Source: Bilabrum cf. latius (lineage: Eukaryota). Taken from it: a DNA stretch of 64,000 nt. Below the pieces are notes generated by a model. The model was not told the origin of the DNA. It did no database searches and worked only from the letters and a program-made list of their open reading frames with translations. Where the stretch lies: assembly GCA_965178125.1 (NCBI GenBank), contig OZ237741.1, positions 1,178,001-1,242,000 on the forward strand, given 5' to 3'. Below, one piece after another: positions 34,196 through 63,143 of this stretch; positions within the stretch are counted from its first letter, which is position 1; every line of letters begins with the position of its first letter. The translations under genes were made by a program, and so were the position numbers.

Positions 34196-37100
34196 ATGGC
34201 CGACAGCACTGCGGTAGGCGTTGCGAAAGCTCTCGTATCACTTTGCCGATCTATTTCCCCGGACAATGCAGCAGCGGCAACATGCGAGCGCGTGTGCAAG
34301 GCCGCTGGATACCTGACGGCCAATCGAGGTATGCTCTCTGTCCAAGCCTGCAAAAGGCATGCCTCTACCATCTGCCATTCGGATCCGTCTGCATCACTGA
34401 TTTTTATTTCCCACAGACAGCCTCGATCCAGCGGATGGTGAATTGGCGACCAAGGTAGTGTCAAGGTGCAGCTCCAACGGTACGTCCACCACTTTCGAGG
34501 CTTTTATTGAATTTATGATCCATAAAAAGTACGCGCATGAACCAGCACACATTTACTCCTTTTGCAGTATGCAAGAGTGCTCTTGCCACGACTTCGACGA
34601 AGGTGGCCGTTCGATTGGCTGTCACGTCGGACGTGCTGGGCTCCATGGCACCGCAGCACGACTCGCCGAGCAGCCTGGCGTTCCAGCAAATAATCAATAC
34701 TCTCATCAGGCACACTGCTGCCAGTTCCAGTCGAATCGCTGCCGTCACATCAGTGCTTCCAGACGTATAGGCGTCCCTAGCTGAGCTGATCGAATCGTGC
34801 TCCTTCCCGCCCCTCGTCGACTACGCCAAGTGCTGCGCTCTGGCGGCCGAGCCCCTCGCAGCTGCAGCAGCACGTGTATCGGCAGAGCCAGACGCGGCAT
34901 CCCCGCTGTCCTGGCCCTCGGGTGAGTGGCCCACGAACTCGCGCGTGCAGAGGCCAGCGGGATGGCAGTCAGCGACTGGCGAGGAGCACCGGCACCCCTC
35001 CCGCGGTGCATCTGGGAATAGGAGCAGCAAGAACAGCGAATCGGCTGCCTCTGCATTAGCCGCAGAAGCAGCCGCTCCCGGGACTGCGGCCTCCCTCTCA
35101 CTCGCCGTGGGGCAGCACCACCGTGCAATGCAGCAAGAGAGGTACACACCCCCCGACGAAGATGACGAGGACCAGGCAGCGGAGCTGACGGTTGCCACAC
35201 ATCCCGTACTGCGGAACCTCCCCGGCGGCGCCGCGGCCCTGCGGCGCAGCTGGCTGCTACCGCCTCATTGCACGGGGGTGGGCCGGAGCTCCGCGGCCGC
35301 CCTGGAGGCCCTCGTGCCCGCGGTGCAAGAAATCCTCCCCTCCCTGCACGATGGGTTGCATACGGGTCTCTCGCGGGCCCGTTCCGCCTGCGAGGCCGCC
35401 TTGCTGGCGGGCACCCAGTCGGCCTCGTGGGTAGAATCCCTGGCTGGTGTGGGCGCTGTGTCGGGGCTGTGGCGGGAGGGGGACCCCAGGTCTGGGTGGA
35501 ACAGGGACGTTTCGAAGCTGGGCTTTGTTCTCTCGGACGGGCGGGCTTGCCTGCGAGCCATGGAGCGACTCGGAGCCGCTATTCTATAGGTGGCTGCGAG
35601 CTCCGGGCCCCTGTCCGGATTAGAATCCTCTGCTTCAGGTGAGGGGAGCGGGGCCAGCCCGATGTCTCAGCCCCTGGAGCCGGCGCTACTGCAGGCTGCG
35701 TGGGAGGCCGTGCGGCAGCTTGGGCTCGTTGTGCCCGGTGATGCTGGTGGCAGTGCAACTGACGGTGGTGCTGCACCGGGTGTCATCCAAGACCAGGAAT
35801 CGCTCGGCGCCTGGCTGCAGAGAGGACAGGCCGTTTCTTCTTCTGCTGCTGCTGCTAGCGGGAGACCCATTGTGCAAGTTAGGCCGCCCTGGGGGCATGG
35901 CCTCCCGCTGGCCATTAGGGTGCCCGGTGCTTCGGCTGCTGGCGCTGGTGCAGGGGCTGGGCACCTAGCAGGGGCAGGGGCAGGGGCAGACTCGCCGGGC
36001 CGAGGCCAGGTGGTTGCAACCCCTAGCAGGGTGGTGGTTTTGAGAGACGCGGGCAGCACGCCCTCAGCTGCGCCAGGGCGCGAGACATAGTCCGGCCACG
36101 AGAGAAAGGAGGCCGCGCCCGGGGCAGTTGAGGCTGTGCTGGGCCCGTGGTTGAGGCACCAGAGGGTCTGCTGGATCTTGGCATACGGACACCCCGCGGG
36201 GCAAGGGGCAAGAAACAAGGGTGGGCGGGACGTGGGCGCACTCGTCACACTTCCGCCGGCACTGGGCAGTGCAGCGGACCACAGCGACGCGGGGGTGCGT
36301 GCCGATGCAGGGGCTGGAGTCGGGGCGGGGCCGAGCGCAGATTCTGGCGTGGTGCTGGCAAGCCGGAACTCTACTCCGGTGGGCAGCAATGGCGGTGGTG
36401 GAGCCGGGAGCATGCGCGCACGGAGGCGCCCCGAGGACTCGCAGGCGGGCGAGATCGGGCTGAGCGACGTAGGTGAGGCTGGCAGCGGGGGAAGCGCCCA
36501 GGAGCCAGCGAGGGAGGACGAGCCGGTGGCTGGTGGCGGCCTCCTTGATAGGCTGCTGCGCTCTATCTGCGGCTGCTGCTTCAGCGAGGCTGACGTCAAA
36601 GCAGCGACAGTTGTGCCGGTGGGCGGTGAGGGTCACCAGCACTAGCAGGAGCAGAAGCAGGAGCAGTCACAAGGTGGTAGGGGGTCAGCGGGAGGCGGCA
36701 GCAATGCCTCGCCTCGGGTCGGTCGCAATGCCGATCCAGCTGTTGCTGCTGCTGCTAGCACCGGTGCTGGCAGTGCCCCGCCAGCAGCTGCTACTGGCCC
36801 AGCTGTGTGGCCAGCTGGCACCCCCACGGCACTCCCAGACGACTAGGCTCCTGTGTTTGAGGCGATAGAAGAAGAAGATGCTGCCCTGAAGGTGCCTGCT
36901 GGCCCTGCAGTGGTGTTGTCCGGTGGACAGCAGGCAGCCGGGCCCAATGGCCTGGTTCACGGGCCTGTCAGTGCAACCGGCAGCGCGGAACCTACACTCA
37001 TCCAGGTGGTGCTCGTTGCACTTGCTGGCTTAGGCGGTCTGCACAAGAGGCTGACTGCCGCGGTAGATGCACTCGACGGCGTGCTGGCCGTGTGGCACGC

Positions 37101-38796
37101 CCAGGTCGGCCGCTCCCACTCGGACATCCTGCTCACTCAAGAGGGCAAAGAGGTGGGCTCGTCGGTCTACGAGCTAGATGCCACCCCCACTGCGGGGGGT
37201 TTCTCGGGGAGCAACGGGCCGGTGGATCCTGCCGCTGCCCGCCGGATTCTCGAGGAGAGCGGGATGGGGTCGAGCGAGCCGTGGAGGACTCGGTGGGCGC
37301 TGCAGGCTAGTGGCGCCATGGCGCTGCAATGCGATGCATCGAACCGAATCGTCACAGCGGCGCGCTCCGTCTTTACCCGACTGCTCCCCCTCGCCCGGCG
37401 CATGGTGCCCCAAACTGCCTGCAGCACGCTGGCCTCTGCAGTGAGTGGCTTCGTGCACGGGTGGGTGGGGCACGCAGCCAGGCACGGGTTGCGGATGGGC
37501 ACCGGCGGCGTCCTGCAGCTGCACACCGACCTGGTGTTCCTGAGGACCTGGATCTTGGCGGGGTGCCCCGTGGGGCGCGCGGTGGCGGACCTGGAGAAGG
37601 AGGCCAAAGCGGCGAAGGAGGCCGAAGAGGCCGCCAAGAAGGCAGGGGTGAGGAAGCCCAAGCCCAAGGACCCGCCGCTGCCGGACCTCCCGAAATGTGC
37701 GCTGCACTGCGCTGCAGTCCTGGCCGCCCGTCATCAGGCCACGGATCATCTGTTCCGGGATGCCACCGCCCAACTTGAGGATCACCGGCAGCAGGGGAAT
37801 CAGCAGGATGATGTGCAAAAGAGCGCGAGCGGTGCTCTCGGCTTTGACCTCGACCCCAACCGGCTGCCGGGGGCGGTGGCCGGGGACACTCCCCGGGGCG
37901 GTGCTGCCGACGATGAGCAGCAGCAGCAAGCCAGCGGGGGCAGGCGCCACTTTCCTGCCCCTGGTGCTGGTGCCGGTGTCGGTGGCGAAACTTCGGCAAC
38001 AGGTGGGCTCGCGGCGGCACTGGGTGCCTTGCGTGCCGGCTCGCCAGAGAGCACTCGACTAGAGGCACCGGAGGCGGAAGAGGGCGGCGTGCGGTGGACC
38101 TTCCACGGGGCCTCTGCGGTGGGGGAACTGCTGGGTGCATTGCCTTGCTGGGCACGGGCACACGGCGTGTTGCAGCTGCTCCTAGCGGGCACGGACGCGC
38201 CGGGGCGGCCGGGACACGCTCTGCTGGGCCCAAGCCCTGGCCATACGCCGATCGCACCCTCCACAGTAGTACCGATCGGGGGACGTGCAGCAACAGCGGC
38301 GGCAGCAGAGGCAATCGAAGGCTCTAAGGTCAGTCTGCGCACCGCCTCCCATCCCGCAGAGATCGGGGCAGGCGAACCCAAGGCGAACGGCAGTGCGGAC
38401 AGCACGAGCGCTGCTGGTGCTGCAGGTGCCTCCACGGGGGTCGGACAGGCGTGGGGTGGTGGTGGCGGTGTGGATGGCCCAGGCCAGGCAGCGGGAGAAA
38501 GCTCAGGCGCGAGCAATGCTGATGCAGCTCCAGAGTGGCCATTCAAGGTGCGCGCATGGCGTGGACCCGACGGGCAGGACTAGGCCACATTCCGGCTGGG
38601 CACGGTGGGGGCAGATGCATCTGTCGAGGACGCTGGTGTGTGGCTGAGGATTCGAAGGGGCCCTGGGGATGGGGCAAGCATCGAGGTAGAGAAAGAGGCG
38701 GTTCGGTCAGGGAACAAGGCGGGACTTCATCCGCTTGCGGTGGTCGTCGGTGGCGGGCTGGGGGCCAGCTAGCTGCCCGCCGTTGTGGCGCACTGA
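34196..38796 (+). CDS. Large Ala-rich protein with a CCDC142-like C-terminal motif; predicted introns 34329-34416 and 34480-34567
   Basis: One frame from about 34570 to TGA 38794 with seven TAGs. GWVGHAARHGLRMGTGGVLQLHTDLVFLRTWI resembles the CCDC142 GALQLxxD motif. Two 88-nt GT-AG introns link it to ATG 34196. Confidence 0.6.
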
Positions 38797-40234: not shown

Positions 40235-43200
40235 TCAGTCAGTTTTCTTGACCCTAGCGAGCAATGCTCTCGCCCGCGCCATCGCGTGCATGCTTCGAGC
40301 CAAAGCTGCATTGTGCGGTGCAGCAATCGACCGCTCCTGCCCCTCTCCACCCACAGCCTCACTGCTAGCCCCATCCCCGTCAGCCCCGCCGGCCCCGCCA
40401 GCAACCCCCACGTCCTCATCCTCCTCTTCCCCATCCTCCTCCACGTGCGCATCCGCCAGACCCCCGAGTCCGGACCCCGAGCTCTGCACCTCGATGCCGA
40501 CCGACTGCCCTGCCATGGGCGAGCCCGGGGTCATGGCCGGTGCCAGTGCAGACGCACCGGGGTCGCCTGGGGTCGGGGCCGGTGCCTGGCGAAGGACTGC
40601 CCCTGCCCCTGCCCCTGTCCCTGCCCCTGCCCCTGCCCCTACCCCTGCCCCTGCCCCTGCCCCTGCACCGCTGTCTTCATCTTCACCGAAGTATTCCATT
40701 TCCTCTGCCCTCCGCAGCGCCTCCTCCTCTTGCACCTCCTCCTCCTGCTCCTGCTCATCGTCCGAACTGGGAGCATCGCCCCAGCCTGAGGCATCTTTCC
40801 CACTAGCAGCAGCAGCACGGCCCGCTTCTAGAGCCTCCTTCTCTCTCTGCTCCACTTCCTTCCTGCCAACCGGACCCTCATTTTGCTCAAGATCCAGATC
40901 CAGATCCATGGGAAGAATTGCAGCATGCTCCTGATCAGCCGGTGCCTCTGCGACCTTCACGTTTCCATCGACCGCTGTGCCCTAGTCCTGCCCAACTGCC
41001 GCTGGTACATGCGGAGCCAAGACATCCTCGGATTCCACCTTGCCCCCCTTGCCGAGATCGGGCCCGGCGCCCTCGTCCTCGTGTGGCTGCAGCGAGGAAG
41101 GCGCCGGGTCTGTGCCTGCCGCTGGCTGGACTTGCGATGGCACGTCATTGCTTTGCGCCACAGTGCCATGCACCCCCTCCGGCCCTCCTGCAACATGCAC
41201 AGTATCATTCTCATCTCCACGAGCCGTATGATCATTGGCCTGCTGCCCACCTAGATCGCCGACTGCACCTGCATCATCGCCCTAAATATGCTTCTGCTGC
41301 TGCTGCTGCTGCTGCACACCCGCCTCCCTGTCGTTCTCATCCTACTCCACGTCACCAGCGCGCGAGCCCCGTTGCTGTCCGTCCTGCAGGCCCATCTCAA
41401 CGTCGACGTCGTCCTGCCCAGCAGCATTGTCGCCCTCCTCGTCCTCATCCTCAACTTCGTTCTCATCCTCGTCCTCAACCTCGTCGTGCTGATTCTGCTG
41501 CTCATGCTCGTGCTCATGCTACGGTGCCTCTTCCGTGATATTGGCCGCTGCACCGGTCCCGAAGCAGCAGCAGAAGCAGCAACCTCCACCCCGCTGCTGC
41601 CGGTAGTTCGGCACGAAGGTCGACAGACCTTCTCCACTGCAGTCGCATAGCAGGCAACAAGGCTCGTCCTAGTCGGGCCGCAGGCCGCCGAGCCGCCCCG
41701 TGCGCCGGCTGAGATCCAGCCTAGTCTTGGTGCGGTGCGCGGCCGGGTGCCGCTGCTCCTCTCTGGTCCTGGCAGGCGGCCCTGGCGCAGGCTCGGCCCC
41801 TACCGGCTTCCGGTCATCCAACCGTGGTGCTGCTGCGCCCTCCCCGCTGCGGTAGCCATGCCCATCAGCGTACTCGTCCTCCTGCCCCTGCTCCTGCTCC
41901 TGCTAGTAGGAATCATATCCACCCGCAGCACCAGCACCGGCACCGGCACCGCTGCCCCTGTCACCCCCAGCGTACTCGCTAGGGACACCCGCGGGAGCCC
42001 CCGGTGCCGGTGCCACGACATCGTCCTCGAAGGATCCAGCCTGCCTCGGGCTCGCCGGCCGCCTCCGCGACACCGATGACTCGGCTGAGCCTCTATCGTA
42101 GGACCTGCCTGTCTCTCCGCTCCTGTACCTTTCGTCAGGCCGGTCGCTACCCCGCCCATGGTCCGACATGTCCACTGACGCTGCGGCTGCTTGTGCCCCC
42201 GCGCCGCCCCCTCCGCTGACAGCCCCCTCCCAGTGCCCACTGCCTGTGCGGTTGTCACCCTGAAGCCGCCGTGGCGTTGCTTCAGCCGCATCAGCGTCCA
42301 TACCGTCCACGCTGCCGCAGCCGTGCTCGGAAGCAGAGGCCACTGAATCGTCCGCGCCTACCACGCCACGTGCCGTCTAGGCGGCAGCAAGCGCTGCCTC
42401 CCGCGCCCGTGCCATGTCTGCCTCCTTCTGGGCCTTGTCCCAGCGCCCGCTGCGCCTCGCCCGCATGTGGGGCGGCAGGCGGCTACTGGTCACCAGGGTG
42501 GGGGGCAGGCCGGGTGCCATGGGAGCCTCGACTGGCTCGTCGGCGGCTCGACCGCGATCTGGTGACCCGGCCTGCGCCTGTCGCCTGTTGTACTCCTCCT
42601 CCTGTCGCAGCTCGGCGGATGTCAGGCCGATGCCGCTCTGCCTTAGCGCCTCGATTCTGCGAGCGTCGCGGTAGGCAGCCACCTCCTCGTCTTCCTCGTC
42701 CTCGCAGCCCTCAATGCACGAGATGGGGATCAAAATGCTGATGTTCGTACCGAACACGTAGTCCATGATGCCCGCATCGATGTCCCGGAGCATGCGACCG
42801 AGAGATTTGAAAGCCTCCGACGATGCCCTCGACGTGTTGTTGAATGCGCCGGTGCCCGACCGCAGTCCCAGGAAGGGTGTCATGACCAGGAAGATGGACG
42901 CACCGAGCACCAGCAGGACGGGCGAAACCGCGAACGCGATCAAGAACACGGGCCACTCCCACAAGAAGTACCTGAGGTAGTCTCCGAACCCCAGGCCTCT
43001 CCTCTGGCTCTCGGCCTGCGCAGTTACTGCCATGTCTAACTCTTCCAGACCGATTCCCATCGAGTTGCGGTCCAGCACCGGCCAGAACATCACGATGGCC
43101 TTGTACCAAGTCACGAACAAGGCTAAGATGGTGAAGAAAAAGTACCACAGCGCGGTGAACGCGGGCACGACCGCAGCACCGATGATGCCAACGAACACGC

Positions 43201-45105
43201 TGGTGACCAGAGCGCAGCTGAAGTAGGGATCTGGCTCGCGGTTCGAGGGCGCGCAGCAGAAAGAGCTGAAGCTCAGTGGCGCGTTAGGGGACAAGCCCAG
43301 CAGAGCCCGCAGCAGGATCTCTGCCAGCATCCAGTAGTCCGTCGCAAAGTCGATGAGCCCTGCCTGCACGCCATACGGGAGCGGCGGCCGGTAGTCGCTC
43401 GTGTCCACCGAGGCCCCGCAGCAGCCCACCACTCTATCCTCCCTGGCAATCACGGCAGGGTCTGCGTCCTACCCGTGCACTCCCTACCCCCCGTTGCCCC
43501 TGCTCCCCCTGGAGCTGCTCTCCCTCCTGAGCTCCTCATCCCTGTCCAGAGCTCCCGTGCCCTCAAGGTCGTACAGCTCATCGGTCAGCTCAGTGTTGCA
43601 CAGCGTTCCACCGCGGCCCGTCCACTGCGGGCTTTGCGTGTAGTATACCACGAACCCGCTCTTGAAGCCCAGGAAGAAGCCCACCACGGGCAGAGACAGG
43701 CACAGCAGCAGGGCCGCCGCTGGCCACAGCAGGGCCAGGAGGGCTGCCACGATGACCCACGCGGGACGCTTACGGATGCCCCTTCGGTCAAGTCCGTACT
43801 CTTCGGCCCGCTGGGCCACGTGCAGATACCCGTACACGCACAACGGTAGGTATAGCAGCACCCCGGTAAGCGTGTAAAAGACCGCCTGCAGGGGTGCCAG
43901 GAGGCCCGCGCAGATCAGCCCGAGCAGCATGTCGCATATGCGGATCTCGCATGGGATACCTACCCAGTCCTGGTCCGAGTACTCGCTGAGCTGGAAGATG
44001 AGCTCGTCCGTGAGCAGGTTGTACCATGCTGTCATGTAGGTGCCCATCTGCGGACAAGAAGGATAGGGGGAGTTGGGTTGGAGAGGGGGGGGGGTGGGGG
44101 GTTGGAAGCGGGGGGGTTGAGATTGCACAAGTGTAGGGTGCTGTGACTGCTATCGCAATCGTGGTGCGGGGGAGTGAGGGTCGAGGCGAAGAGGACAGAC
44201 CCGTCGTGTATCCCCAGCCGTGCATAGCATTCAAATGATTATATCCTGTGGTTTGCGAATCTCACTCTCTTGATGGGGTCAGTAAACCCGCTGCAAAGGA
44301 AGAGGGCGTAGTGCACTCCCTCCGTGCACTGGGTCTGCCGACCGTTCAAGATGGCGAAGTAGGCGTGTACGTAGGCCGTCGCGATCGCAATGAAGATCAT
44401 GAGGATCACCGTTGCCGGAATGGCAAGGATGAACGCCAGTGGTAGCAGCAGGATAGCGATGAACCGGGCCCCGAGCAGCAGACGCGGCGTGATGCACAGC
44501 GCCAAGCACGACCGGTCGCACAGCTTCGGCAAAGCAAAAAGGTACATCCCAAGGCCCATGATGATTGCATACACCATGATGAATGGAAGAACCAGGGATC
44601 CTTCGATGATGCTGAGCAGCAGCGCCGAGGCAGAGACGAGCACTTCGCAGCAGATCTCTGCGCTGTCAAGCTCTGGAATATCCAGCTGCGGCGGCCGTTT
44701 TTGCAGCTCTTTATCGATCTCTTCGTTAACAACCAGATCTTCTAGGGCCTCTACCTCGCCCATGCGGTTGTCGTCGTCCAATGTCGCCCCCCTCCACCGC
44801 TCCTTAGTCTTCCTGGCTCCTGGCGGTGAGACGTACATGCCTCCGTCAGCCTCTGCCCCCCACTCATCACCTCCTGAATCGTCAGGATTGGATGGATCTT
44901 CATCTCGTTTACTTTCTGGTGCAGGACTCCGGTAGTACTAACCCCGCCTTCTGGAAGCAGGTGGGAGCCGAATGGCTGTGGTTGTGCGACCCGTCGGCGG
45001 TGCATCGGCAGGGGTCGGCGCCAACGCAGGGGCGGAACGATTGTGCAGCTTGTATGAGTCATATGCATCATCTGGGTACATGTCGCCTGGGCTTGCACTT
45101 GCCAT
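40235..45105 (-). CDS. Hypothetical multi-pass membrane protein with a long acidic disordered C-terminus; predicted intron 44048-44265
   Basis: Three hydrophobic blocks in ORFs 44239-44838, 43484-44128 and 42377-43453, joined by TAGs and one GT-AG intron; ends TGA 40235. Confidence 0.6.
40598..40666. repeat. Coding (CCCTGC)n hexamer repeat (Gly-Ala tract on the minus strand)
   Basis: Read directly from sequence. Confidence 0.8.
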
Positions 45106-46620: not shown

Positions 46621-47779
46621 CACGGTTTTGGCCGTGCTAGGCCGCGACTCGGATGCAAGATAGATATTGTTGAATACTGTGTTTCAAATCCAGGATCAGT
46701 ATGCACACTCAACATCCGGATATGCCACTAGTAGCCTTTCGAAATACGGCATTAGCACCGGTTGCTGCCTTAGGATCTTTAGTCTGCCCGGACCCCACTC
46801 TGGCACATGGACCGCAAATCGGACCCCCTCCAAAAATCCGCTAATCCGGATTCCGGATACACTCCGCAACTTTCCGTGCCAGTCAGCTTGTCTGCTAACT
46901 CATCCGAGATCCACCATTTCTCCTTTGTGAACTCCTGCCCCTTCATCTCTGACAGAGAGAATCCGCCACACCACCATCACACTACAGAAACACACATCAC
47001 GCTATCACGGCCGGGTTGGCTAGGTTGTTTATCTTTGCCATCCGGTACGACTTCCCGTAGTTGGCCTCTGACGCTGCGGAATCAGCACCATCCCCATTCA
47101 GCGCGGCACCGCCTCCCTTGCTGGTCGCCTCGTCGGGTCTGGGGGGGGGGGCGGGGCTGGTGCATGGTCCCACCGTCCGACCCACATTATTGCCGGCAAA
47201 CCACCACACCACCAGCACCACGGCAGCACCCACCGCCACACCGTGACCCGCAAAAATAGCCACGGGTGCACCCCCACCATCATCCCTTTCCCCACCATCC
47301 CCCTTCTGCGGGATGGGCTCGCCCCTCGCCTCCGCCACCAGCGCATCGGACGACGGCTGCACAAACCTCGCAGCCTACAGCACCGGTCGGTGTTGGCTTT
47401 AGAGTATGGCTATAACGGCAGGGTTTCTTCGAAGTGTGGTTTGTGTGCTGCGAATGCCCCAAAGTAGAAATACAGAAATACAGAAATACATTGTTGGGTA
47501 AAGATTCCATAAACACCCAGATGCACCGTCGCCCCCGAGGGGGTTTGGATGATCACCTAGATCCAGAGGAGCCCTAAAAACAAAGGACTACAAGACCCCC
47601 GACCCTTTCAGGCCAAAGGCCCCCCGTTCTCAGCCTATGCCGCTGAGTTCCCGTTCGTCGCCATCAGTGTGGTCCAAAGTAGATCTGCCTGCTTTTGTGG
47701 CGAGCACTTTTTGCGTGTTTCCACCCCGGCACTGGACTAAAGCAAGCAAGTGACGTCTCCTGACTACCTGATCGGTATT

Positions 47780-50700
47780 ATGGCATCAGCTAGCCCTGGA
47801 ACTGATAGCACCACTACAAAAGAGCCATAGACCCGTGCAGACTCTGCAGGGCCCGGTCCCGATCTGCCTGAAAGCTTTCTCGAAATCTGCCGCATGACGA
47901 ACTCGGGCAATACTGCATTGCGACATCGACAGGCCCTATAGATCCTGGACAGATGCACCAAGCCAGCAGATGGACTATGCTTACTTGATCACAGCGGATT
48001 TGGGGCAGTCTTCCGTGTGGTTCTCCCTCTAATCAGCGCTGCTGTTGCCGTTGGCGATGCCCCGCCTGTTTCTGACCTCTTTGCAGTCAAGGCAGCCTTC
48101 AACTGGGGACAGCCCGCATGCAAGTTCGAAAACATGGCCTTGCAAAAAGAGCTCGATGTGCTCGGTGGATTGCCCGAGCACCGCAACCTGCGCCGCGTGC
48201 TGTTCGAGTGCGTGTGCGAACCGCCCGTGTGGATGGTGGAGATGCTGCCTGACCCTAGATCGGTATGCATGAATGCCGGCGGTGCTCATCTCCTATCGAA
48301 GGACTCGTCAAACGCTGGTGCTCTTCCCCTGCGGCCCCAGAAGGCCCTGATGGTAGGCATGGAGCTGCTCGACAGCACGCTGCGTGATCACCTTAACATC
48401 GTGGAGGGGGATGAGCCGGGGTCCATGCCTGACGATGTGCTGGTGCAGCTGTCCAGGGATATCGCGGAGGGCGTGTATCATCTGCTGCAGCACGGGGTGG
48501 TGCACCGAAGCCTGAAGCTGGACAACGTCATGTGGTCCGCGACTGGGGGTCCGGATGGCGTTGGGCGGGCTGTGCTGACCGGTCTCGGGTGCTCGCTGCG
48601 TGTGCACGTAGATGGAGCTGCGGTATCATTGGGCAGCACTGTACCGGCCGATCCAGTCGCTGCTTCTGCCGCTACTTCTGGTGCGGATCCCAATGATGAT
48701 GATGCATGCATCGGTATTGGTGCCAGGGCTAAGCATGAGCCTGGTGTGGAGGAGGCACTGCATCAGGTAACATACCGGTAGTGGAAGGATGGCGGTGACA
48801 GGCTTGGTGGCAATTAGGCTCACATGGCCCCTGAGGTGCTTGACGGCTGGCACCGGGGAGATATGGGTGACTTAGACGCTCGTGTACCCTTCGGCAAACA
48901 GGCATCGTGGGAGCTGGGCGTATTACTGTACGAGCTGGCCACCGGAGGGCAGCACCCGTTCGGGGACCAGTATCCTGGCGAGATGCAGGATGGGAGCAAA
49001 CCAAGGCTCAGGAGTCTGGCAGCTGCAATGCATGCATGCAAAGCTCCGATGGCGGGTCATGATGTGCTGTCGAGGCGTCCTGGGTGGTATATCGACATGG
49101 TGCGTGGCTTGCTGTGTATCGACCCTGAAGACAGGACCGGTGTGGAAGACGCCGTGCGGATACTCCGATCGAGAGAGGCACGTTGTGCATTGATACCAGC
49201 TGTAGCTGATGTCCGAGCCTTTGTGCCTGCACTGCTTGCTGACGGGGCAGAGTGCGAGTCAGCGGTGGCCAGGGTGAGGGAGCAGGTGGATGGGCTGATG
49301 GCGAGGGGGGACTGGGATGGGGTGTATCGGGTGCTGTGGCAGCTGCGGGTGGAGTCGGGAGTGAATCGGCCTGACGACTTCCCAGACTAGCCCCGGCTGC
49401 TGCTCGATGAAGTACGTGGTGCTGTCACTGACCATGTGCTGACTGACGCGGGTGAACTGGAGAGGATTGTAAAAGGGCTAAGTGCAGAAGGGGCGACGGA
49501 CGCAGGAATTGCGACATTCTTGGTCTGGCGAATGTGCTACAAAAACGATAAAGCACAGACACGCTTTGTGGATGAAGGTGCATTGGACAGCCTGGTAGGA
49601 TTGCTTAGATCCAGCAAGGGCAAGGAGGCTGAGTATGCCGCTGGAGCGCTCGTCAACATCGCTGCTGGATCCGTTGACAAGATGCAGGCCGTGGTGGATG
49701 CCGGTGCGCTGGGAGGACTGGTTGCTCTGCTCGGATCCAGCAAGGGCAAGGAGGCTGAATATGCAGCTAGGGCACTTTAGATTATTGCTGCTGGATCGGA
49801 CGATCTCAGACAGGCCGTGGTGGATGCCGGTGCGCTGGTAGGTCTGGTTGCTCTGCTCGGATCCAGCAAGGGCGAGGAGGCTCAATGCGCAGCCGGAGCA
49901 CTTCACAATATCGCTGCTGGATCGGACGATCTCAAGCAGGCCGTGGTGGATGCCGGCGCGTTACCCGGGCTTGTGTCACTGCTCGGATCCAGCAAGGGCA
50001 AGGAGGCTGAATATGCCGCTGGAGCGCTCGTCAACTTCGCTGCTGGATCCGTTGACAAGATGCAGGCCGTGGTGGATGCCGGTGCGCTGGGAGGACTGGT
50101 TGCTCTGCTCGGATCTAGCAAGGGCGACGAGGCTCAATGCGCAGCCGCAGCACTTCACAATATTGCTGCTGGATCGGACGATCTCAGACAGGCCGTGGTG
50201 GATGCCGGTGCGCTGGGAGGACTGGTTGCTCTGCTCGGATCCAGCAAGGGCAAGGAGGCTCAATGCGCAGCCGCAGCACTTCTGAGTATCGCTGCTGGAT
50301 CGGACGATCTCAAGCAGGCCGTGGTGGATGCCGGTGCGCTGGGAGGACTGGTTGCTCTGCTCGGATCCAGCAAGGGCGAGGAGGCTGAATATGCAGCCGC
50401 AGCACTTCACAATATTGCTGCTGGATCGGACGATTTCAGACAGGCCGTGGTGGATGCCGGTGCGCTGGTAGGTCTGGTTGCTCTGCTCGGATCCAGCAAG
50501 GGCAAGGAGGCTGAATATGCAGCTAGGGCACTTTAGATTATTGCTGCTGGATCGGACGACCAGAAGCAGGCCGTGGTGGATGCCGGCGCGTTACCCGGGC
50601 TTGTGTCACTGCTCGGATCCAGCAAGGGCAAGGAGGCTGAGTATGCCGCTGGAGCGCTCGTCAACTTCGCTGCTGGATCCGTTGACAAGATGCAGGCCGT

Positions 50701-53479
50701 GGTGGATGCCGGTGCGCTGGGAGGACTGGTTGCTCTGCTCGGATCCAGCAAGGGCGACGAGGCTGAATGCGCAGTCGGAGCACTTCACAATATTGCTGCT
50801 GGATCGGACGATCTCAGACAGGCCGTGGTGGATGCCGGTGCGCTGGTAGGTCTGGTTGCTCTGCTCGGATCCAGCAAGGGCAAGGAGGCTCAATGCGCAG
50901 CCGCAGCACTTCTGAGTATTGCTGCTGGATCGGACGACCAGAAGCAGGCCGTGGTGGATGCCGGTGCGCTGGGAGGACTGGTTGCTCTGCTCGGATCCAG
51001 CAAGGGCAAGGAGGCTGAATATGCAGCTAGGGCACTTTGGAATATCGCTGCTGGATCGGACGATCTCAGACAGGCCGTGGTGGATGCCGGTGCGCTGGTA
51101 GGTCTGGTTGCCATGCTCGGATCCCGCAAGGGCGACGAGGCTGAATATGCAGCTAGGGCACTTTAGAATATCGCTGCTAGACTGAACGATCTCAGGCAGG
51201 CCGTGGTGGATGCGGGCGCGCTGGGAGGACTGGTTGCTCTGCTCGGATCCAGCAAGGGCGAGGAGGCTCAATGCGCAGCCGCAGCACTTCACAATATCGC
51301 TGCTGGATCGGACGATCTCAGACAGGCCGTGGTGGATGCTGGTGCGCTGGGAGGTCTGGTTGCTCTGCTCGGATCCAGCAAGGGCAAGGAGGCTGAAGCC
51401 GCTGCCGCAGTACTTTGGAATATCGCTACTGGATCGGACGGCAGGAAGCAGGCCGTGGTGGATGCCGGTGCGCTGGGAGGACTGGTTGCTCTGCTCGGAT
51501 CCAGCAAGGGCGACGAGGCTCAATGCGCAGTCGGAGCACTTCACAATATCGCTACTGGATCGGACGATCTCAAGCAGGCCGTGGTGGATGCCGGTGCGCT
51601 GGTAGGTCTGGTTGCTCTGCTCGGATCCAGCAAGGGCGAGGAGGCTGAATATGCAGCCGCAGCACTTCACAATGTTGCTGCTGGATCGGACGGCAGGAAG
51701 CAGGCCGTGGTGGATGCCGGTGCGCTGGGAGGACTGGTTGCTCTGCTCGGATCCAGCAAGGGCAAGGAGGCTGAATATGCAGCTAGGGCACTTTAGAATA
51801 TCGCTGCTGGATCGGACGATCTCAAACAGGCCGTGGTGGATGCCGGTGCGCTGGGAGGACTGGTTGCTCTGCTCGGATCCAGCAAGGGCAAGGAGGCTGA
51901 ATGCGCAGTCGGAGCACTTCACAATATTGCTGCTGGATCGGACGGCAGGAAGCAGGCCGTGGTGGATGCCGGTGCGCTGGGAGGAATGGTTGCTCTGCTC
52001 GGATCCAGCAAGGGCAAGGAGGCTCAATGCGCAGCCGCAGCACTTTAGAATATCGCTGCTGGATAGGACGATCTCAGACAGGCCGTGGTGGATGCGGGCG
52101 CGCTGGGAGGACTGGTTGCTCTGCTCGGATCCAGCAAGGGCAAGGAGGCTGAATATGCAGCCGCAGCACTTCACAATATCGTTACTGGATCGGACGATCT
52201 CAGACAGGCCGTGGTGGATGCCGGTGCGCTGGGAGGACTGGTTGCTCTGCTCGGATCCAGCAAGGGCGACGAGGCTGAATATGCAGCCGTGGCTCTTTGG
52301 AATATCGCTGCTGGATCGGACGATCTCAAGCAGGCCGTGGTGGATGCCGGTGCGCTGGGAGGACTGGTTGCTCTGCTCGGATCCAGCAAGGGCGACGAGG
52401 CTGAATATGCAGCCGTGGCTCTTTGGAATATCGCTGCTGGATCGGACGATCTCAGACAGGCCGTGGTGGATGCCGGTGCGCTGGGAGGACTGGTTGCTCT
52501 GCTCGGATCCAGCAAGGGCAAGGAGGCTCAATGCGCAGCCGCAGCACTTCACAATATTGCTGCTGGATCGGACGATCTCAGACAGGCCATGGTGGATGCG
52601 GGCGCGCTGGGAGGACTGGTTGCTCTGCTCGGATCCAGCAAGGGCAAGGAGGCTGAATATGCAACCGTGGCTCTTTGGAATATCGCTGCTGGATCGGACG
52701 ATCTCAGACAGGCCATGGTGGATGCCGGTGCGCTGGTAGGTCTGGTTGCTCTGCTCGGATCCAGCAAGGGCAAGGAGGCTGAATATGCAGCTAGGGCACT
52801 TTAGAATATCGCTGCTGGATCGGACGATCTCAAGCAGGCCGTGGTGGATGCCGGTGCGCTGGTAGGTCTGGTTGCTCTGCTCGGATCCAGCAAGGGCGAG
52901 GAGGCTGAATATGCAGCCGCAGCACTTTAGAATATCGCTGCTGGATCGGACGATCTCAAGCAGGCCGTGGTGGATGCCGGTGCGCTGGTAGGAATGGTTG
53001 CTCTGCTCGGATCCAGCAAGGGCGACGAGGCTGAATGCGCAGCCGCAGCACTTTAGAATATCGCTGCTGGATCGGACGGCAGGAAGCAGGCCGTGGTGGA
53101 TGCCGGTGCGCTGGTAGGTCTGGTTGCTCTGCTCGGATCCAGCAAGGGCAAGGAGGCTGAATATGCAGCTAGGGCACTTTAGAATATCGCTGCTGGATCG
53201 GACGATCTCAAACAGGCCGTGGTGGATGCGGGCGCGCTGGGAGGATTGGTGGCGCTACTTGGGTGGGACAGAGGCATGAAAGCTGTACACGCTGCTGTCG
53301 TGCTAGTGACAGTGTGGAACGGGTCCAATAATTTTAAAGAGGCTGTTGTGTCCGCTGGTGCAATTCCAAGGCTGATTCAAATGAGAAACCAGGGTGCTGG
53401 CGATGTGGCCATGCATGCGCGTCTGGCTCTAAGGCAAATGGATCCGGATTCCGGATGGATGACGTGTATTGCAACTTAA
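47780..53479 (+). CDS. Pseudokinase (PINK1-like fold) + about 30 armadillo repeats + C-terminal CaaX (CIAT); 1899 aa
   Basis: One frame from ATG 47780 to TAA 53477 with 15 TAGs and no TAA/TGA. Kinase motifs SGFGAVF, FAVK, HRSLKLDN, GLG, GGN*AHMAPEV and WELGVLLYELATGGQHPF; ARM consensus VVDAGALGGLVALLGSSKGKEAEYAARALxNIA. Confidence 0.85.
49565..53344 (+). repeat. Coding tandem array of 30 x 126-bp (42-aa) armadillo repeats
   Basis: GTGGTGGATGCCGGTGCG-type unit starts recur every 126 bp (49691, 49817 ... 53219); the first and last units are divergent caps. Confidence 0.95.
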
Positions 53480-57850: not shown

Positions 57851-60800
57851 TCATTCCAAGTCTGGGGGAGGTCCTTCCGGCAACGGGATGTCTTCTGGGA
57901 TGACAAAATCCACCCCTCCGGGTGGCGCACGGCCCTGTGAAGCTGCCGAGCCTGCCAATGGCGCCTGCTGGTTCTCGTACCCACCTGGCCAGTCTCCTGC
58001 AGATGCATCGTCATCGAGACCATCGCTCGCCCCGGGCACGGCTTCCTCGGCATACTTGGCTGCTGCCTCGAGCACGGCGCTCTGTTCGGGGGATCGAACC
58101 TGGGCCTTAGAGTTGCCCTAGGGCGATCCCATGCCCTTTGGATGCAAGGGAGGTGAACATGCCGGGTCACCACCATCCGGGTCACCACCAGCACCAGGTG
58201 CATCGCCACCCCGACCTGGGACAACACCGGTACCCGTGTCTTCGTGCCCGCCCTCGCCCCGGCGCCGGTCCCTCCCCCGCGGCTGGCCGGCAGGCGGCTT
58301 CACCCCCTTCCAATGCTTGGCCCTATCCCCTGGCAGACTGCCAATAACAATCCTAGTCTCTGCTCCGGCCAAGAACGACAGCGCGGCGTTCACTCGGGCT
58401 GCGTCTGCTGGGCTGGTCGCACCGCGGGTGGGCATTGGAGTGGACAGCTGCGAAGGGGAAGGCAACGCTTGCTTGCTCTCTGAGTCCGGTGTGCCGCGTT
58501 TGCCTCGCCCGTGCACTGCCCGACTCTTCCGCAGCGGGCTTGTCCTTGCTGCAGCCGAGCTGGCCTGGGGTACATCTCGAGGTGTGAGTCTCCGCCCACT
58601 GGCGCTTGCACGTCCCACTGGAGACAGCAGCAGAGGGGAGTGCTTCGGGGCCGCGGCGAGCTGCATGATTTTGCTGGGGCTATTAGAACTAGCGACAGCC
58701 TGCACTGGAGCACCACCATCATCGGCCTTGTGCTCGTGGCTGGTTGAAACAAGCTACCCATCGCTAAACGCCGACTAGGCTTCCACCGTCTCACCCACCG
58801 GCTTTGATGCAGCAAGGGCATCGGTGCCAAGCTCAGCCCCCCTGGCAGCATCCTGTGCTCGCCCTCCTGACCGAGCCGAAGCCAAGCGCTCCACATGCTC
58901 CGAGTCCATCGCGCCCAGGTCTAGGTGCATCGTCCGGATGCCCGGGCTTGGCGCGCCCGAGCCGGATCCGGTGCCCGGTGAGCTGCCGGCAGACCCGCGG
59001 CCCGATCTACTCTGCTCCTGCCCTAGTTGTTGTCTCTGCTTCAGCTCGGATGCTTCCACCAGCAAGGATGTTCTTCGCTTCGGAGCCAACAGCTCCTCCG
59101 TCAGTCGATCGGGGCGCCCGTCTAGCCGCATGGGCAGTCGGTCGGTGGGTGACCTGGCTGAGACATGCGCGGCAGGCTGCGGTGCTGGCCCTCGGCCAGG
59201 TGACGGCTGCTTGCCGGCAAATGCGCGGCGTGGCACCGCCTCTGGCGGCAGCGGCTGGCTGTTTTGGCGATGCTACGCGGGCTCCGGCTGCCATTGGGGC
59301 TTGTACCCTGGTATTGGCGCCGCCTTGTTGCGTCGCACCGCCTGCTGCACCTCTGCACGCCGCTGCATCCGAAGCGAGAGTCGCCTGCGGGAGTGATCGA
59401 GCGGAGACTCTCCCTCCTGCCGAGCGGCCGCCAGCTGCCTCCTCTCCGTGGCCGACAGCACGGGTCCATCCCTGCCCCCTTTGGGTGGGGATTGCGCCTG
59501 TGAGTCCTGGCTAGGCCGGGGCCCGCCCCAGCGGGACGGGCTGCTTGCCGAAGGGGAAGAGGCCGAGTTCAATGGGGAGAGAGAGGTCTATACCGCGGCA
59601 GGGCGGCCCGCCAGGCTGCTGAACGAAGCAGACGCGCGACCAGGACCAGTTCGACCTAGAGCGGGCTGTGCGCCCGAGGACTGCGAATGGGACGGCGATG
59701 TGCCCGGAGACAGGCGTTGTTCCAGCGAGAACAGGACGCTCTCAGCCGCACTGACAGCCGAAGGAGACTCTCTGCTCCCTGGCTGTATCTCGCCAGGCAC
59801 GCGCTTGGCCTTGGCCTGGCTCTCTGCTCCACTGACGGGTGGGCCGGTACTCCCGTCAGCCAGCCCAGCGCCGGCAAGCCGACTGTTGGCGCAACGCAAG
59901 GCGCCGGGATGGAAGGGTTGCCTGGCTTGTTCGCTGGCACATGCCAAATGCACCCCTTCTGAAGCGTACACGGCTGCAGCGACCGCCGGCACGACCGCGT
60001 CAGTCTTGCTCTTAAAATGCAAGACTTCCTGACCGTCTGGCAGAGGCGCGCCCCACGCCAGAGGCACGCGCACCTGTGCCACGGCACTGCCCTGCTGCTC
60101 GCTTTCGTCCACCGACACGCTCGCGCCCAGGCTGTGCAGCAGGATGGCTGCCACTGGCAGGGGCACCGTGTGGCACCCTGCATCCGACAACACCGCCACG
60201 AGGGGGGCCTCGGGGCCGCCTAGAGATGGCTCACGCGCCTGTGCCTTCAAAGGAGAAGATGGGGTGTTCAGACCATTGGACTGCACGCATATGAAGGCGG
60301 GCTGTCCACCTAGCAGCTAGCGCAGCGGGTTGGTTGCGGGTCCAGGGGATGCCTTGAGAACCAAAGCCGCGCCGTGCGACCCGTTGTACTGCTCCCATCG
60401 CTGCAGCACAGCACGAAACCGGCTCAGCGCATCTGCTGGGCCTACTGGCGATGCCAACGCAGCCGCCATTGCCCCGGCCGCAGCGGAGACGTGCTGCCAG
60501 GAGGTGCCTCCAGCAGCAACACTAGCCTCTGCTCGTTCGTCCTATCGCGGTGCAGAAGTGCGATCATGCAGCCCTGGTGCGTCTGCCGGCTTGTTCACCG
60601 AGCGCACTGCGAGGTACCGGTCATCCCGAGGATGCACCTCTGCCAGCCCATACGGCACCGGCGCCGTCTCGGCCTCGGTACTGCTAAGTGCATGCGATCC
60701 TAGGGCCAGGCCCACCTCGACAGGCAGCATGATTCTGAGTCCGGAACCACGTGGCTCTTCGACTGATGCATCACCTGGCTGTTGGCCAGCTTCTGACACG

Positions 60801-63143
60801 CCCGCATCAAGGTGCACCCTCAGTACAATCCCCACGCTCATCTCTGAGGGCGGCACCCCACTGCCAGAAACACCCCCGTGGTGCGGCCCAAGAGAACCCA
60901 TGGTGCCGTCTCGTGCGGACCCACCTGTCTCGAACGCCTCGCCCTCGCGGCCCTCTCCATCTCCACTCGGCCCATCCTCCTGTCCTCGTCTCCTCGGTGT
61001 GACCAGCGCCATCCTCTTGGAGACCCAGTCGCCCTCCCCGCCTGGACGAGCCCATGCCGACGATGTGCTCAGTGGGGAGGGCGCACCGCTGCGCGGGCCC
61101 ACACCGCCAGGGCCTGAGTCTCGCAGCCGGGCAATCGCGGGGTCTACTGGCCCGCTGCTGGGGGATGCCGCATCAATGCCGATTGGCCGTTCCATGCCTA
61201 GGCCTCCCGCTTGAGTCGTTCTCTAGCGGTTTTCTCTGTCTGCGTAGGCCTCCGAACGGCCTCGCACAGCCGCGGTGCCTGCACCTGCACCTGCGCCTGC
61301 GCCTGCACCAGCCCTGGTGCTGCCATTCGCATTTTCCACTGGAGGCGCTCTTCCAATCCCGCGGTCCTCGGATTCAGACCTGCCTGCGTGCGCGCCTTCA
61401 CCCGGTCGAGGTATCGCGCGAGGCAGCTTGCCAGCAGCCCTCTCGTCCTCTCCTCGACTCGGCGATGGAATGGGGATTGAAGCACCGCTTCCGCTTCCAC
61501 CCTGATTCACGCCCATCGCGACCTCAGACCCGTTTGCGCTCAACACGTGACCGCCTTCCACGTTTGCCTGCGACAATGCAGAGGAGCTGTCTGAGCCTCG
61601 CTGCGCCGCCGCCCCGTCCTCCCCACTGGCATTCTGCACCGCACTGCGGCGGCTCGGAGACCCGGAGTCGGAATGCTGGGCGGAGTCTCCCGGCTCCGGC
61701 TCGATGAGGCCGTTGTCCACGCTGCCCGCAGCAATGGCGGACAGGTGCCTCGAGCCCTGGTCCTGGTCCTGGTCCGTATCTTGGTCCGTATCTTGGTGCG
61801 GCAATGGCGAGCTCTTGGACTCGGACTCGTCCTCGCTGGCACCTGTCGCGCGTCTAGTGTCGTGGTCCTATGCATCCCCCGCAGTTACAGTAGCGTCTGC
61901 ATTGCTTCGTGCAGACTGCTTGTTCTCGTCCTGCGCCCCTGTGCCAGCAGCGCGCGATGGACTGGCGCCCCTGGCCGCCTGCATGGCCAGCTGCAGGATG
62001 GCGTCTGCGTGCGCAGCTTTGGCTGCTGCTACTGGTGCTGTTGGTGCTGCTGCAGCTGATGCCGACGTGTCACTTTCCTCACATTCAGGCATTTTGTCGT
62101 GCATCTGTCCGTTCTCCTCCTTGACATCCCCCTTGCCGCTCCCGTTGGCTGCACCCCCTGTCTTGCTACTGCCTGCATCCCCGACCTTGCCCCCCCTCTC
62201 CCTTTCTCTCTACCCAACCTCTAGTATCACTCCACTGTGGCCCGTGACAGCATCAAGCTGCCTCTGCAGCCTCGCCACCTCGTGCAGTGCACCCACCAGC
62301 TGGGCCTGCGCGGCCTCCGCCTCTCCCCTAGCCGATTGTACCAGCCTTTCCTGTCTCCGCCTCGCCTTTTCACTGGCCTGCGCGTTGCTTTCCCACGCCT
62401 CTGTGGCAGCCAGGAGCAGCCGCAGGGTCTGCATGCGCCACGCTTCCTGCCTGTGCCTGTCGCCCATCGCTGTCGCTGCATAGTGTAAGATGCAGGAGTA
62501 ACCACTAGGCTTGAGAAAGTACCGAGATAAGCAGGAGTAAACTACAAAAGACAAAGAGGCCATACATACGCGAAAAAGGCAAACACAGATCACATGGTGG
62601 TTGCAGGCAGAACACGCGCGGGGCATCAAAGGCCTACCAGTGCCAGTGGTACTGCGCATCATGATCCAGTGGCCTGGTCTCACCGATGGTCTCCCTCGAG
62701 AGCTGCATGCACAGAGCGCGGACACCCTGGGTCCACTGCATGGCACGGTCGTGCATCGCTGTGCTTCCCGAGCCAGCCGACGATTGCGAGGCTCTGGAGA
62801 CAGCTGAGTAGCTGGGATGGGCTGGAGCTCCAGCTGGTGGGAGCTACGGTGGCACGGGTGGCGTGCTGCCAGTGGCAGTGCCGCCAACTTGCGGCTGCTG
62901 GACCTCTTTACGGTATCGTCTGCCTGCCTGCCCCATTCCAAGCATTGGATTCACGTGCAACTTTTCCATTCTACCCGCCTGCGGACTTGAGGACCTTGAG
63001 GCCGAGTGGCTGGGTCCTGGAGATGGCAAGTTGCTTGGTGGGGCGGACGATGCTACAAAGTCGCCCGAAGCACGCCTGCGGCGATTGAGTGGCCTATCAA
63101 TCTTCATGTTGGGACGATCCGCACCAAGGTGTGCCGCTTCCAT
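57851..63143 (-). CDS. Large low-complexity hypothetical protein (5' structure uncertain; probable intron near 62480-62570)
   Basis: Nine listed ORFs from 62210-62941 down to 57851-58075 share one frame; the junctions I checked are TAG; ends TGA 57851. An upstream exon in another frame probably starts at ATG 63143. Confidence 0.5.

Follow-up and report, generated by a model that had tools for sequence, protein, structure and literature searches.

The described systems closest to the gene analysed here are families of receptors whose repeats are shuffled. In Podospora HNWD and related high-internal-conservation (HIC) NLRs (PMC13449251), repeats within one gene are 80-100% identical, a few binding positions are hypervariable, units are gained, lost and shuffled through unequal crossover or conversion, and the genes turn over; the survey of HIC NLRs covered only WD40, TPR, ANK and LRR repeats. 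The brown-algal ROCO and NB-ARC-TPR candidate receptors (PMC3341825) form a stramenopile multigene family with a signalling domain, shuffled repeats whose surface residues vary, and gene birth and death. With these systems we compare a gene in a 64,000-nucleotide stretch of the Bilabrum cf. latius assembly (GCA_965178125.1, contig OZ237741.1, positions 1,178,001 to 1,242,000; hereafter the window), which joins a PINK1-like kinase to 30 armadillo (ARM) repeats and is called here the kinase-ARM gene.

The kinase-ARM gene shares with the HIC NLRs homogenised repeats (mean DNA identity 87.7% here, for a criterion of at least 70-80%), few variable positions on the binding face, and the gain, loss and shuffling of repeats. 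It differs by its ARM repeats, its PINK1-like N-terminal kinase, its unicellular host and its lack of NACHT/NB-ARC, for which neither the window protein nor six scanned paralogues gave a Pfam match. The brown-algal receptors have one repeat per exon (PMC3341825), whereas the present array is one intron-free frame, with ARM repeats and a kinase as signalling domain instead. Without NACHT/NB-ARC and without a repeat-per-exon structure, the gene is therefore a member of neither group. The Tetrahymena LRR genes with 90-bp exons (PMC6564038) number in the thousands, contain introns, lie near LINE-like elements and expand clonally by unequal crossover; the likeness is that of protist repeat genes apparently expanded by unequal crossover, whereas the kinase-ARM gene has no LRR exons and its retroelement link amounts to one copy beside one gene. 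No report of a kinase-ARM family, or of PINK1-like kinases with armadillo repeats in protists, was found in the literature covered, which left out most subscription literature and does not establish absence.

Homogenised repeats with a variable groove

Units are numbered with AVVD as position 1, and the first and last unit of each array were dropped from the statistics, which leaves 28 internal units in the window. The array of 30 ARM units announced by the first-pass annotation is borne out: all 30 are ungapped 126-bp units without any indel. All 28 internal units are distinct, and no two units share an exact stretch of more than 124 nt. The scaffold had been called almost invariant at the DNA level, which is too strong, as position 9 carries G, V or P (17, 9 and 2 units) and codons 5, 6 and 10 have common synonymous variants. 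Over codons 1-20, the proportions of nonsynonymous and synonymous differences (pN and pS) are 0.03 and 0.11 (pN/pS 0.27). Variation does concentrate in helix 3 and the following loop and helix 1, as had been noticed, once position 9 is added; variability is highest at the eight positions 9, 21, 24, 25, 28, 31, 40 and 41. The duplication of a divergent LPGLVSLL...SVDKMQ unit was likewise found again (units 4 and 9, Table 1).

Alignment of the units with 5MFL, a designed armadillo repeat protein (dArmRP), requires no gap, unit positions 21, 24, 25, 28, 31, 32, 35 and 36 falling on dArmRP positions 26, 29, 30, 33, 36, 37, 40 and 41. With Foldseek, the predicted ARM part matches peptide-bound dArmRPs (5MFC, root-mean-square deviation 2.1 A over 278 columns), and its fold is closest to importin-derived designs, importin-alpha and Vac8. 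Alignment and fold match support a placement of the variable sites on the binding face, as the earlier reading required. The groove set used here includes further positions besides those named in the papers cited next. The dArmRP literature places the pocket residues of helix 3 at 29, 30 and 33 (PMC11228518) and names Glu30, Trp33 and a conserved Asn ladder (PMC4756613). With dArmRPs (PDB 5MFL, 5MFC, 5AEI; same sources) and importin-alpha, the array has in common an ungapped 42-aa repeat; its variable positions 24, 25 and 28 are the pocket residues 29, 30 and 33, and Asn 37 is conserved in both. It differs from the designs in being natural, 30 repeats long, diversified by recombination and fused to a kinase, and its peptide binding is a prediction from sequence.

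Amino-acid heterozygosity at groove positions of the window array is 0.446, against 0.167 at random positions (p = 0.00015). The groove set was chosen after the window variability table, and ten other arrays of the family, which provide a more independent test, gave 0.402 against 0.219 (p = 0.0005). On the exposed convex face the values are 0.107 in the window and 0.227 in the ten other arrays. Asn at position 32 (dArmRP 37) is present in 24 of the 28 internal units and in 116 of 157 units of the family; Trp fills 55 of 314 cells at positions 28 and 31, and 2 of 6,280 elsewhere. As shown by alignment, the residues that differ between units are those lining the peptide groove of dArmRPs, and most of the backbone-binding Asn ladder of the concave face is retained.

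Recombination among the units

All four gametes occur at 254 of 990 informative site pairs of the window array (Hudson-Kaplan minimum number of recombination events, Rm = 10), and the 28 internal units carry 21 different six-residue groove codes, in agreement with the initial impression that variants recur in new combinations. Incompatible pairs make up 13 of 178 when sites are less than 10 nt apart and 20-40% at larger distance. Of the 36 pairs that nine variable cassettes make up, only 5 show linkage at p < 0.05, and four of these 5 lie within 18 nt; linkage is lost beyond about 20 nt; with linkage confined to such short distances, conversion tracts are therefore short.

In a tree of units, 26 of the 30 window units form one gene-specific clade with a support of 0.99. 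Six of the ten other arrays are wholly or nearly monophyletic, those of L024, L025, L027 and L030 are not (L numbers designate retrieved stretches of DNA), and the nearest neighbour lies within the same gene for 170 of 206 units. The duplicates L027 and L028 show 7 differences in 9,837 bp. A stretch of 144 bp in ARM units 6-7 contains 6 of them, located at positions 21, 25 and 26, and here the L028 sequence corresponds to units 4-5 with 2 mismatches. Such a tract is expected of a templated conversion, although mis-polishing may also account for it. For units 4 and 9, no inter-gene donor was found among the fetched loci (best candidate, 7 mismatches in 36 nt). The proposal of concerted evolution by conversion or unequal crossover is sustained by the four-gamete and Rm results, the 26-unit clade, the loss of linkage and the L027/L028 tract. 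At the level of these comparisons, intra-gene recombination is shown to homogenise the units, to alter their number and to re-deal the helix-3 cassettes.

Tests for selection on kinase, scaffold and groove

The selection tests included 11 arrays, among them the TPR-ARM gene L037 and the kinase-less fragment L031; the array statistics omit the duplicates L028 and L032 as well as copies of L033/L051 that overlap, and five diverged arrays (54-70% identity) were excluded from groove and selection tests. The ratio of nonsynonymous to synonymous substitution rates (dN/dS) of kinase plus linker is 0.44 against the sister L024 and 0.28-0.38 in three other sister pairs; by this measure, kinase and linker are under purifying selection. 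Purifying selection on the scaffold is also clear from the unit comparison.

Within the window array, diversity reaches 0.260 at groove codon positions 1+2, compared with 0.061 at other codons and 0.114 at four-fold sites, a groove/four-fold ratio of 2.28 (one-sided p = 0.03; theta ratio 1.55). Synonymous diversity is 0.145 in helix 3 and 0.099 outside, a smaller rise than that of amino acids. At position 31 (ARM 36), where alleles of several nucleotides reach intermediate frequency, diversity lies above that of four-fold synonymous sites in 10 of 11 arrays (p = 0.0015), as no other position does; at position 25 (ARM 30) it does so in 9 of 11 (p = 0.012). These values are suggestive of diversifying selection at one or two sites. 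In comparison with the HIC NLRs, the evidence for selection is weaker (a ratio of 2.28 here and of about 1 family-wide).

TAG as a glutamine codon

Twelve dynein heavy-chain stretches of this genome, with frames of 3,108-3,299 codons, contain 141 TAG and no TAA or TGA in 38,490 codons. Where dynein columns are conserved to at least 70%, the residue opposite TAG is Gln in 14 of 26 cases, Glu in 4 and Arg in 2, and CAG and CAA show the same profile; in 28 dynein AAA matches, every internal stop is TAG. Prp8 has four in-frame TAG, indicating a sense codon, and the two TAG sites of the PHYHD1-like gene in the window face a Gln and a Ser of the human protein. At G000:C23:907607-907679 (L055:1500-1574, minus strand) the nuclear genome encodes a CUA-anticodon tRNA that folds into a regular cloverleaf, the one copy found by DNA search. 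Its similarity to tRNA-Tyr (50/75) and to tRNA-Gln(UUG) and tRNA-Glu (49 each) singles out no parent, its acceptor stem resembling tRNA-Tyr and its D arm tRNA-Gln(UUG). On this comparative evidence, TAG encodes Gln genome-wide, with TAA and TGA remaining stops. From the dynein counts, the Gln columns and the CUA-tRNA, the helix-3 variant first written as a stop is therefore a Gln allele, present in 9 of the 28 internal units.

TAG columns of the kinase family (n = 19) hold Gln in 7 cases, and Tyr, Asp and Trp in 2 each, and in the ARM units (n = 17) the majority residue is Glu in 9, Gln in 3, Ser in 3 and Arg in 2. TAG at Glu sites of the ARM columns is compatible with one-step GAG/TAG changes and is of no use in assigning the residue. 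Editing or decay of TGG to TAG was considered and ruled out, since TAG columns match Gln, and not Trp or Tyr, in dyneins and the kinase family. Many other window genes also extend only with TAG as sense (among them 57851-62950, minus strand; 34519-38796, plus; 40235-44230, minus). A standard annotation would score the kinase-ARM gene and many others as pseudogenes.

The closest named matches of the window PRL1 protein are oomycetes (53-55%), and the main 18S rRNA, in tandem copies on C12, measures 1,700 nt. Another 18S rRNA gene (1,802 nt; G000:C95:6099-7900, L085) is unlike these copies and possibly comes from another organism in the assembly, and the mitochondrion-like contig G000:C111 carries a UCA-anticodon tRNA, likely pointing to a code of the UGA=Trp type. 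The PRL1 matches, the UCA tRNA and the 1,700-nt 18S suggest that the lineage is probably a divergent heterotrophic stramenopile, possibly a bicosoecid. Codes with UAG alone reassigned to Gln are described for the fornicate Iotanema spirale and for three ciliates, namely Protocruzia tuzeti and two phyllopharyngeans (PMC11687900). UAG alone as Gln, UAA and UGA as stops and a CUA-anticodon tRNA are common to these codes and the present one; the present genome is apparently stramenopile, and PMC11687900 names no stramenopile case. Nor was such a code found for stramenopiles in the literature covered, which leaves most subscription literature and bioRxiv supplements outside.

Gene layout and protein

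The reading frame is open from 47741 to 53479, with no TAA or TGA before the terminal TAA at 53477, and outside the repeats the two alternative frames contain 14 and 28 TAA/TGA. The gene is readable without any intron, and its start Met agrees with the sister paralogue L024. In the protein, the kinase is followed by the linker, the ARM units and the C-cap, the array making up the C-terminal two-thirds (Table 1).

Table 1. Features of the kinase-ARM locus, in positions of the window
Feature	Position	Strand	Remarks
Dispersed retroelement-like repeat, 5'-truncated	47466..47689	-	90 bp 5' of the start codon; a neighbour of the gene
Kinase-ARM gene, one open frame of 1,899 aa	47780..53479	+	15 in-frame TAG (as Gln)
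PINK1-like kinase domain, predicted catalytically dead	47849..49165	+	Pfam Pkinase E 7.7e-11
Catalytic loop HRSLKLDN (family: HRDLKLDN)	48503..48526	+	Without catalytic Asp
GLG replacing family DLG (DFG equivalent)	48581..48589	+	Without Mg-binding Asp
Helical linker/N-cap	49166..49561	+	No Pfam match; conserved across paralogues; helical, predicted local distance difference test (pLDDT) 66-92
30 ARM repeats of 42 aa (126 bp), ungapped	49562..53341	+	Pfam Arm (PF00514) E 1.6e-148
Unit 4, divergent LPGLVSLL/SVDKMQ type	49940..50065	+	Second half nearly as in unit 1 (2 of 57 nt differ)
Unit 9, copy of unit 4	50570..50695	+	One synonymous difference
Antisense frame across the array, 970 codons	50606..53518	-	Most probably a consequence of codon usage in the repeat
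C-terminal capping repeat and TAA stop	53342..53479	+	

Searched against the PDB, the family kinase profile has PINK1 as its four best matches (E 5e-15 to 7e-14), followed by PKC (8e-14). The likeness to PINK1 kinases thus reaches only E of about 1e-14, with K-x-x-F-N-Y and G-G-N-x-A-x-x-A-P-E as shared stretches; the window copy differs by its ARM tail and by the loss of both catalytic Asp. It keeps the VAIK Lys and, given HRS for HRD and GLG for DLG, is by its motifs a pseudokinase. No mitochondrial targeting or transmembrane segment was seen by eye in the window protein. In the structure model the kinase part is unreliable (pLDDT mostly below 50), and the ARM part, with three helices per unit, has a pLDDT of about 90. 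Assembled contigs from three public runs (two studies) cover the kinase part with no difference; read mapping covered 47300-49600. One run, presumed to be RNA, has contigs over this part, which speaks neither for nor against expression. The retroelement-like repeat upstream has an 8-nt tandem 3' tail, 43 genome matches, nearly all 93-98% identical, and a very high read depth.

Gene family and relatives

A 78-aa kinase piece gave 41 matches in the genome, 25 of them below E 1e-18; 31 stretches around kinase or ARM matches were fetched, in which at least 21 distinct kinase genes were read. Both Asp are kept in 12 of 21 family genes and at least one is lost in 9. ARM counts range from 2 to 30, and well-supported sister kinases differ sharply in repeat number (30 in the window and about 22 diverged units in L024; 20 in L022 and 2 in L023; 14 in L025 and 3 in L034), a comparison between paralogues and not alleles. 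Within-gene DNA identity is 80-87% in ten other arrays. Several members are broken or fragmentary (L029, L030, L031/L032), as in birth-and-death families. Repeats of the window type also stand behind a TPR-bearing N-terminus (L037:2781-9899, minus strand, 25 homogenised units) and before a RING finger in a gene with a degenerate N-terminal part (L036:3029-6301, plus strand). In L043:1698-6683 (minus strand) a long GA/GAGF low-complexity spacer separates kinase and ARM units. The pairs L027/L028, L031/L032 and L118/L119 belong to a segmental duplication on G000:C22 (about 722,700-749,000 and 828,200-854,700), with copies about 105.6 kb apart and 99.9% identical; its left edge lies inside a kinase-less ARM fragment, and C22 holds a cluster of family genes.

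In other organisms, the kinase family is joined to ARM repeats in 2 of 47 scanned long matches, plus P0002; its other partner domains are Sel1, SPRY, Ras/Roc, ubiquitin, U-box and PARP. A metagenome contig from another organism (JGI Ga0136560_1018461, L087:1-2055, plus strand) has a kinase 47% identical, the same kinase-linker-ARM layout, 9 in-frame TAG and two identical ARM stretches; judged by this contig, the kinase-ARM family and the TAG code are common to relatives. The distant kinase relative P0002 (cluster members P0173-P0176) has its own near-identical array of 43-aa ARM repeats in which the same helix-3 sites vary, probably an independent homogenisation. A viral origin was considered and rejected, no relative having turned up in viral contigs.

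Proposed mechanism and alternative explanations

We give about an even chance to the kinase-ARM gene being an intact member of a lineage-expanded family and encoding an intracellular recognition protein, with all that this includes of peptide binding, signalling and a role in defence or self/non-self discrimination. The results show the recombination part of this: near-identity allows misalignment of the repeats, and through short conversion tracts and unequal crossovers the scaffold is homogenised within each gene, repeat number is altered and small helix-3 cassettes are re-dealt in new combinations. The solenoid would bind extended peptide segments with a side-chain preference set repeat by repeat, in what we infer to be a modular recognition code. 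The scaffold would be held by purifying selection and the groove positions left free, variety being favoured by selection at one or two of them (ARM 36 and 30). Least certain are the last steps: the ligand may be variable, either non-self or fast-evolving, binding may be signalled through the kinase or, for this pseudokinase copy, through an active paralogue, and the protein may serve as a defence or self/non-self sensor. That some twenty kinase and pseudokinase sensors are NLR-independent, recombination-driven natural analogues of designed ARM peptide-binder libraries, in which every repeat would read a portion of a foreign peptide, conversion would re-deal the pockets and the PINK1-like kinase would signal, is a possible extension about which we are doubtful.

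Several results weigh against recognition driven by selected variety. Over the 11 arrays the groove/four-fold ratio ranges from 0.81 to 2.28 and is not above 1 (p = 0.46 for pi, 0.37 for theta), four-fold diversity is itself raised in helix 3 (0.31, against 0.20 outside; p = 0.04), and NG86 pN/pS within helix-3 codons is 0.47-0.53. The result for position 31 becomes p of about 0.06 over 42 positions, and the L027, L030 and L031 arrays are related. The ancestral consensus, too, has Trp at ARM position 33, and positions 39-41 and 9, outside the groove set, vary as well. In the P0002 cluster, the order of the 12 repeats is unchanged among five near-identical members; therefore shuffling is not fast everywhere. 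The diversifying selection proposed by the first-pass annotation has weak support, from the window ratio and from position 31, and none from the 11-array test; synonymous changes, which it had set as a counter-indication, are enriched in helix 3, but less than amino-acid diversity, so that the counter-indication applies in part. Linkage to selected sites would also raise helix-3 synonymous diversity. These figures suit concerted evolution with relaxed constraint only, in which homogenisation and shuffling are mechanical, changes in the scaffold are removed, exposed helix-3 residues drift and variety is a by-product without any code: the ratio is near 1 in 7 of the 11 arrays, and the NG86 ratio stays below 1 inside helix 3. 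We take this explanation seriously and still judge it rather improbable, as the equally exposed convex face is far less variable (0.107, against 0.446 in the groove), position 31 surpasses synonymous diversity in all but one of the 11 arrays and has multi-nucleotide alleles of intermediate frequency, and the Asn ladder and groove Trp are retained.

The arrays might instead choose the cell's own partners, as in importin-alpha, Vac8 or PUB-like substrate and cargo targeting, the variation being sub-functionalisation. The nearest folds, the 12 of 21 kinases with both Asp and the fusions of the same ARM type to TPR (L037) and RING (L036) agree with this, but stable partners predict fixed, position-specific repeats, whereas homogenisation is gene-wide, close kinases have 2-30 repeats, recent duplicates show templated conversion and several copies are broken; endogenous targeting is therefore unlikely. 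Still less probable is a decaying pseudogene with stops spread by repeat shuffling: the 15 TAG under the standard code and the loss of both catalytic Asp would be expected of one, but TAG is Gln genome-wide, the 1,899 codons contain no TAA, TGA or frameshift where the other frames of the non-repeat part are rich in TAA/TGA, dN/dS is 0.44 and public contigs match the kinase part exactly. A collapsed or mis-polished tandem repeat we find hardly credible. Long tandem arrays are error-prone and reads were mapped to 47300-49600, but all 28 internal units differ and exact matches do not exceed 124 nt, so the array is not a collapsed repeat; the 30 units are moreover free of indels, the pattern is repeated in ten other arrays and the architecture in another organism (L087).

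Significance

If the recognition reading is true, the principle of high internal conservation reaches beyond NLRs to ARM-kinase fusions; on its more doubtful extension, the family would provide variable recognition that does not depend on NLRs, along with ARM pocket specificities of natural origin. By analogy, the kinase-ARM gene would work like the HIC NLR sensors, without an NTPase domain. The free positions are the pocket residues randomised by engineers, so the natural pocket variants suit a direct peptide-library assay. Little is settled about the means by which unicellular grazers tell viruses, intracellular bacteria or kin apart, and the kinase-ARM family offers concrete candidates: about twenty such genes may form a variable recognition repertoire.

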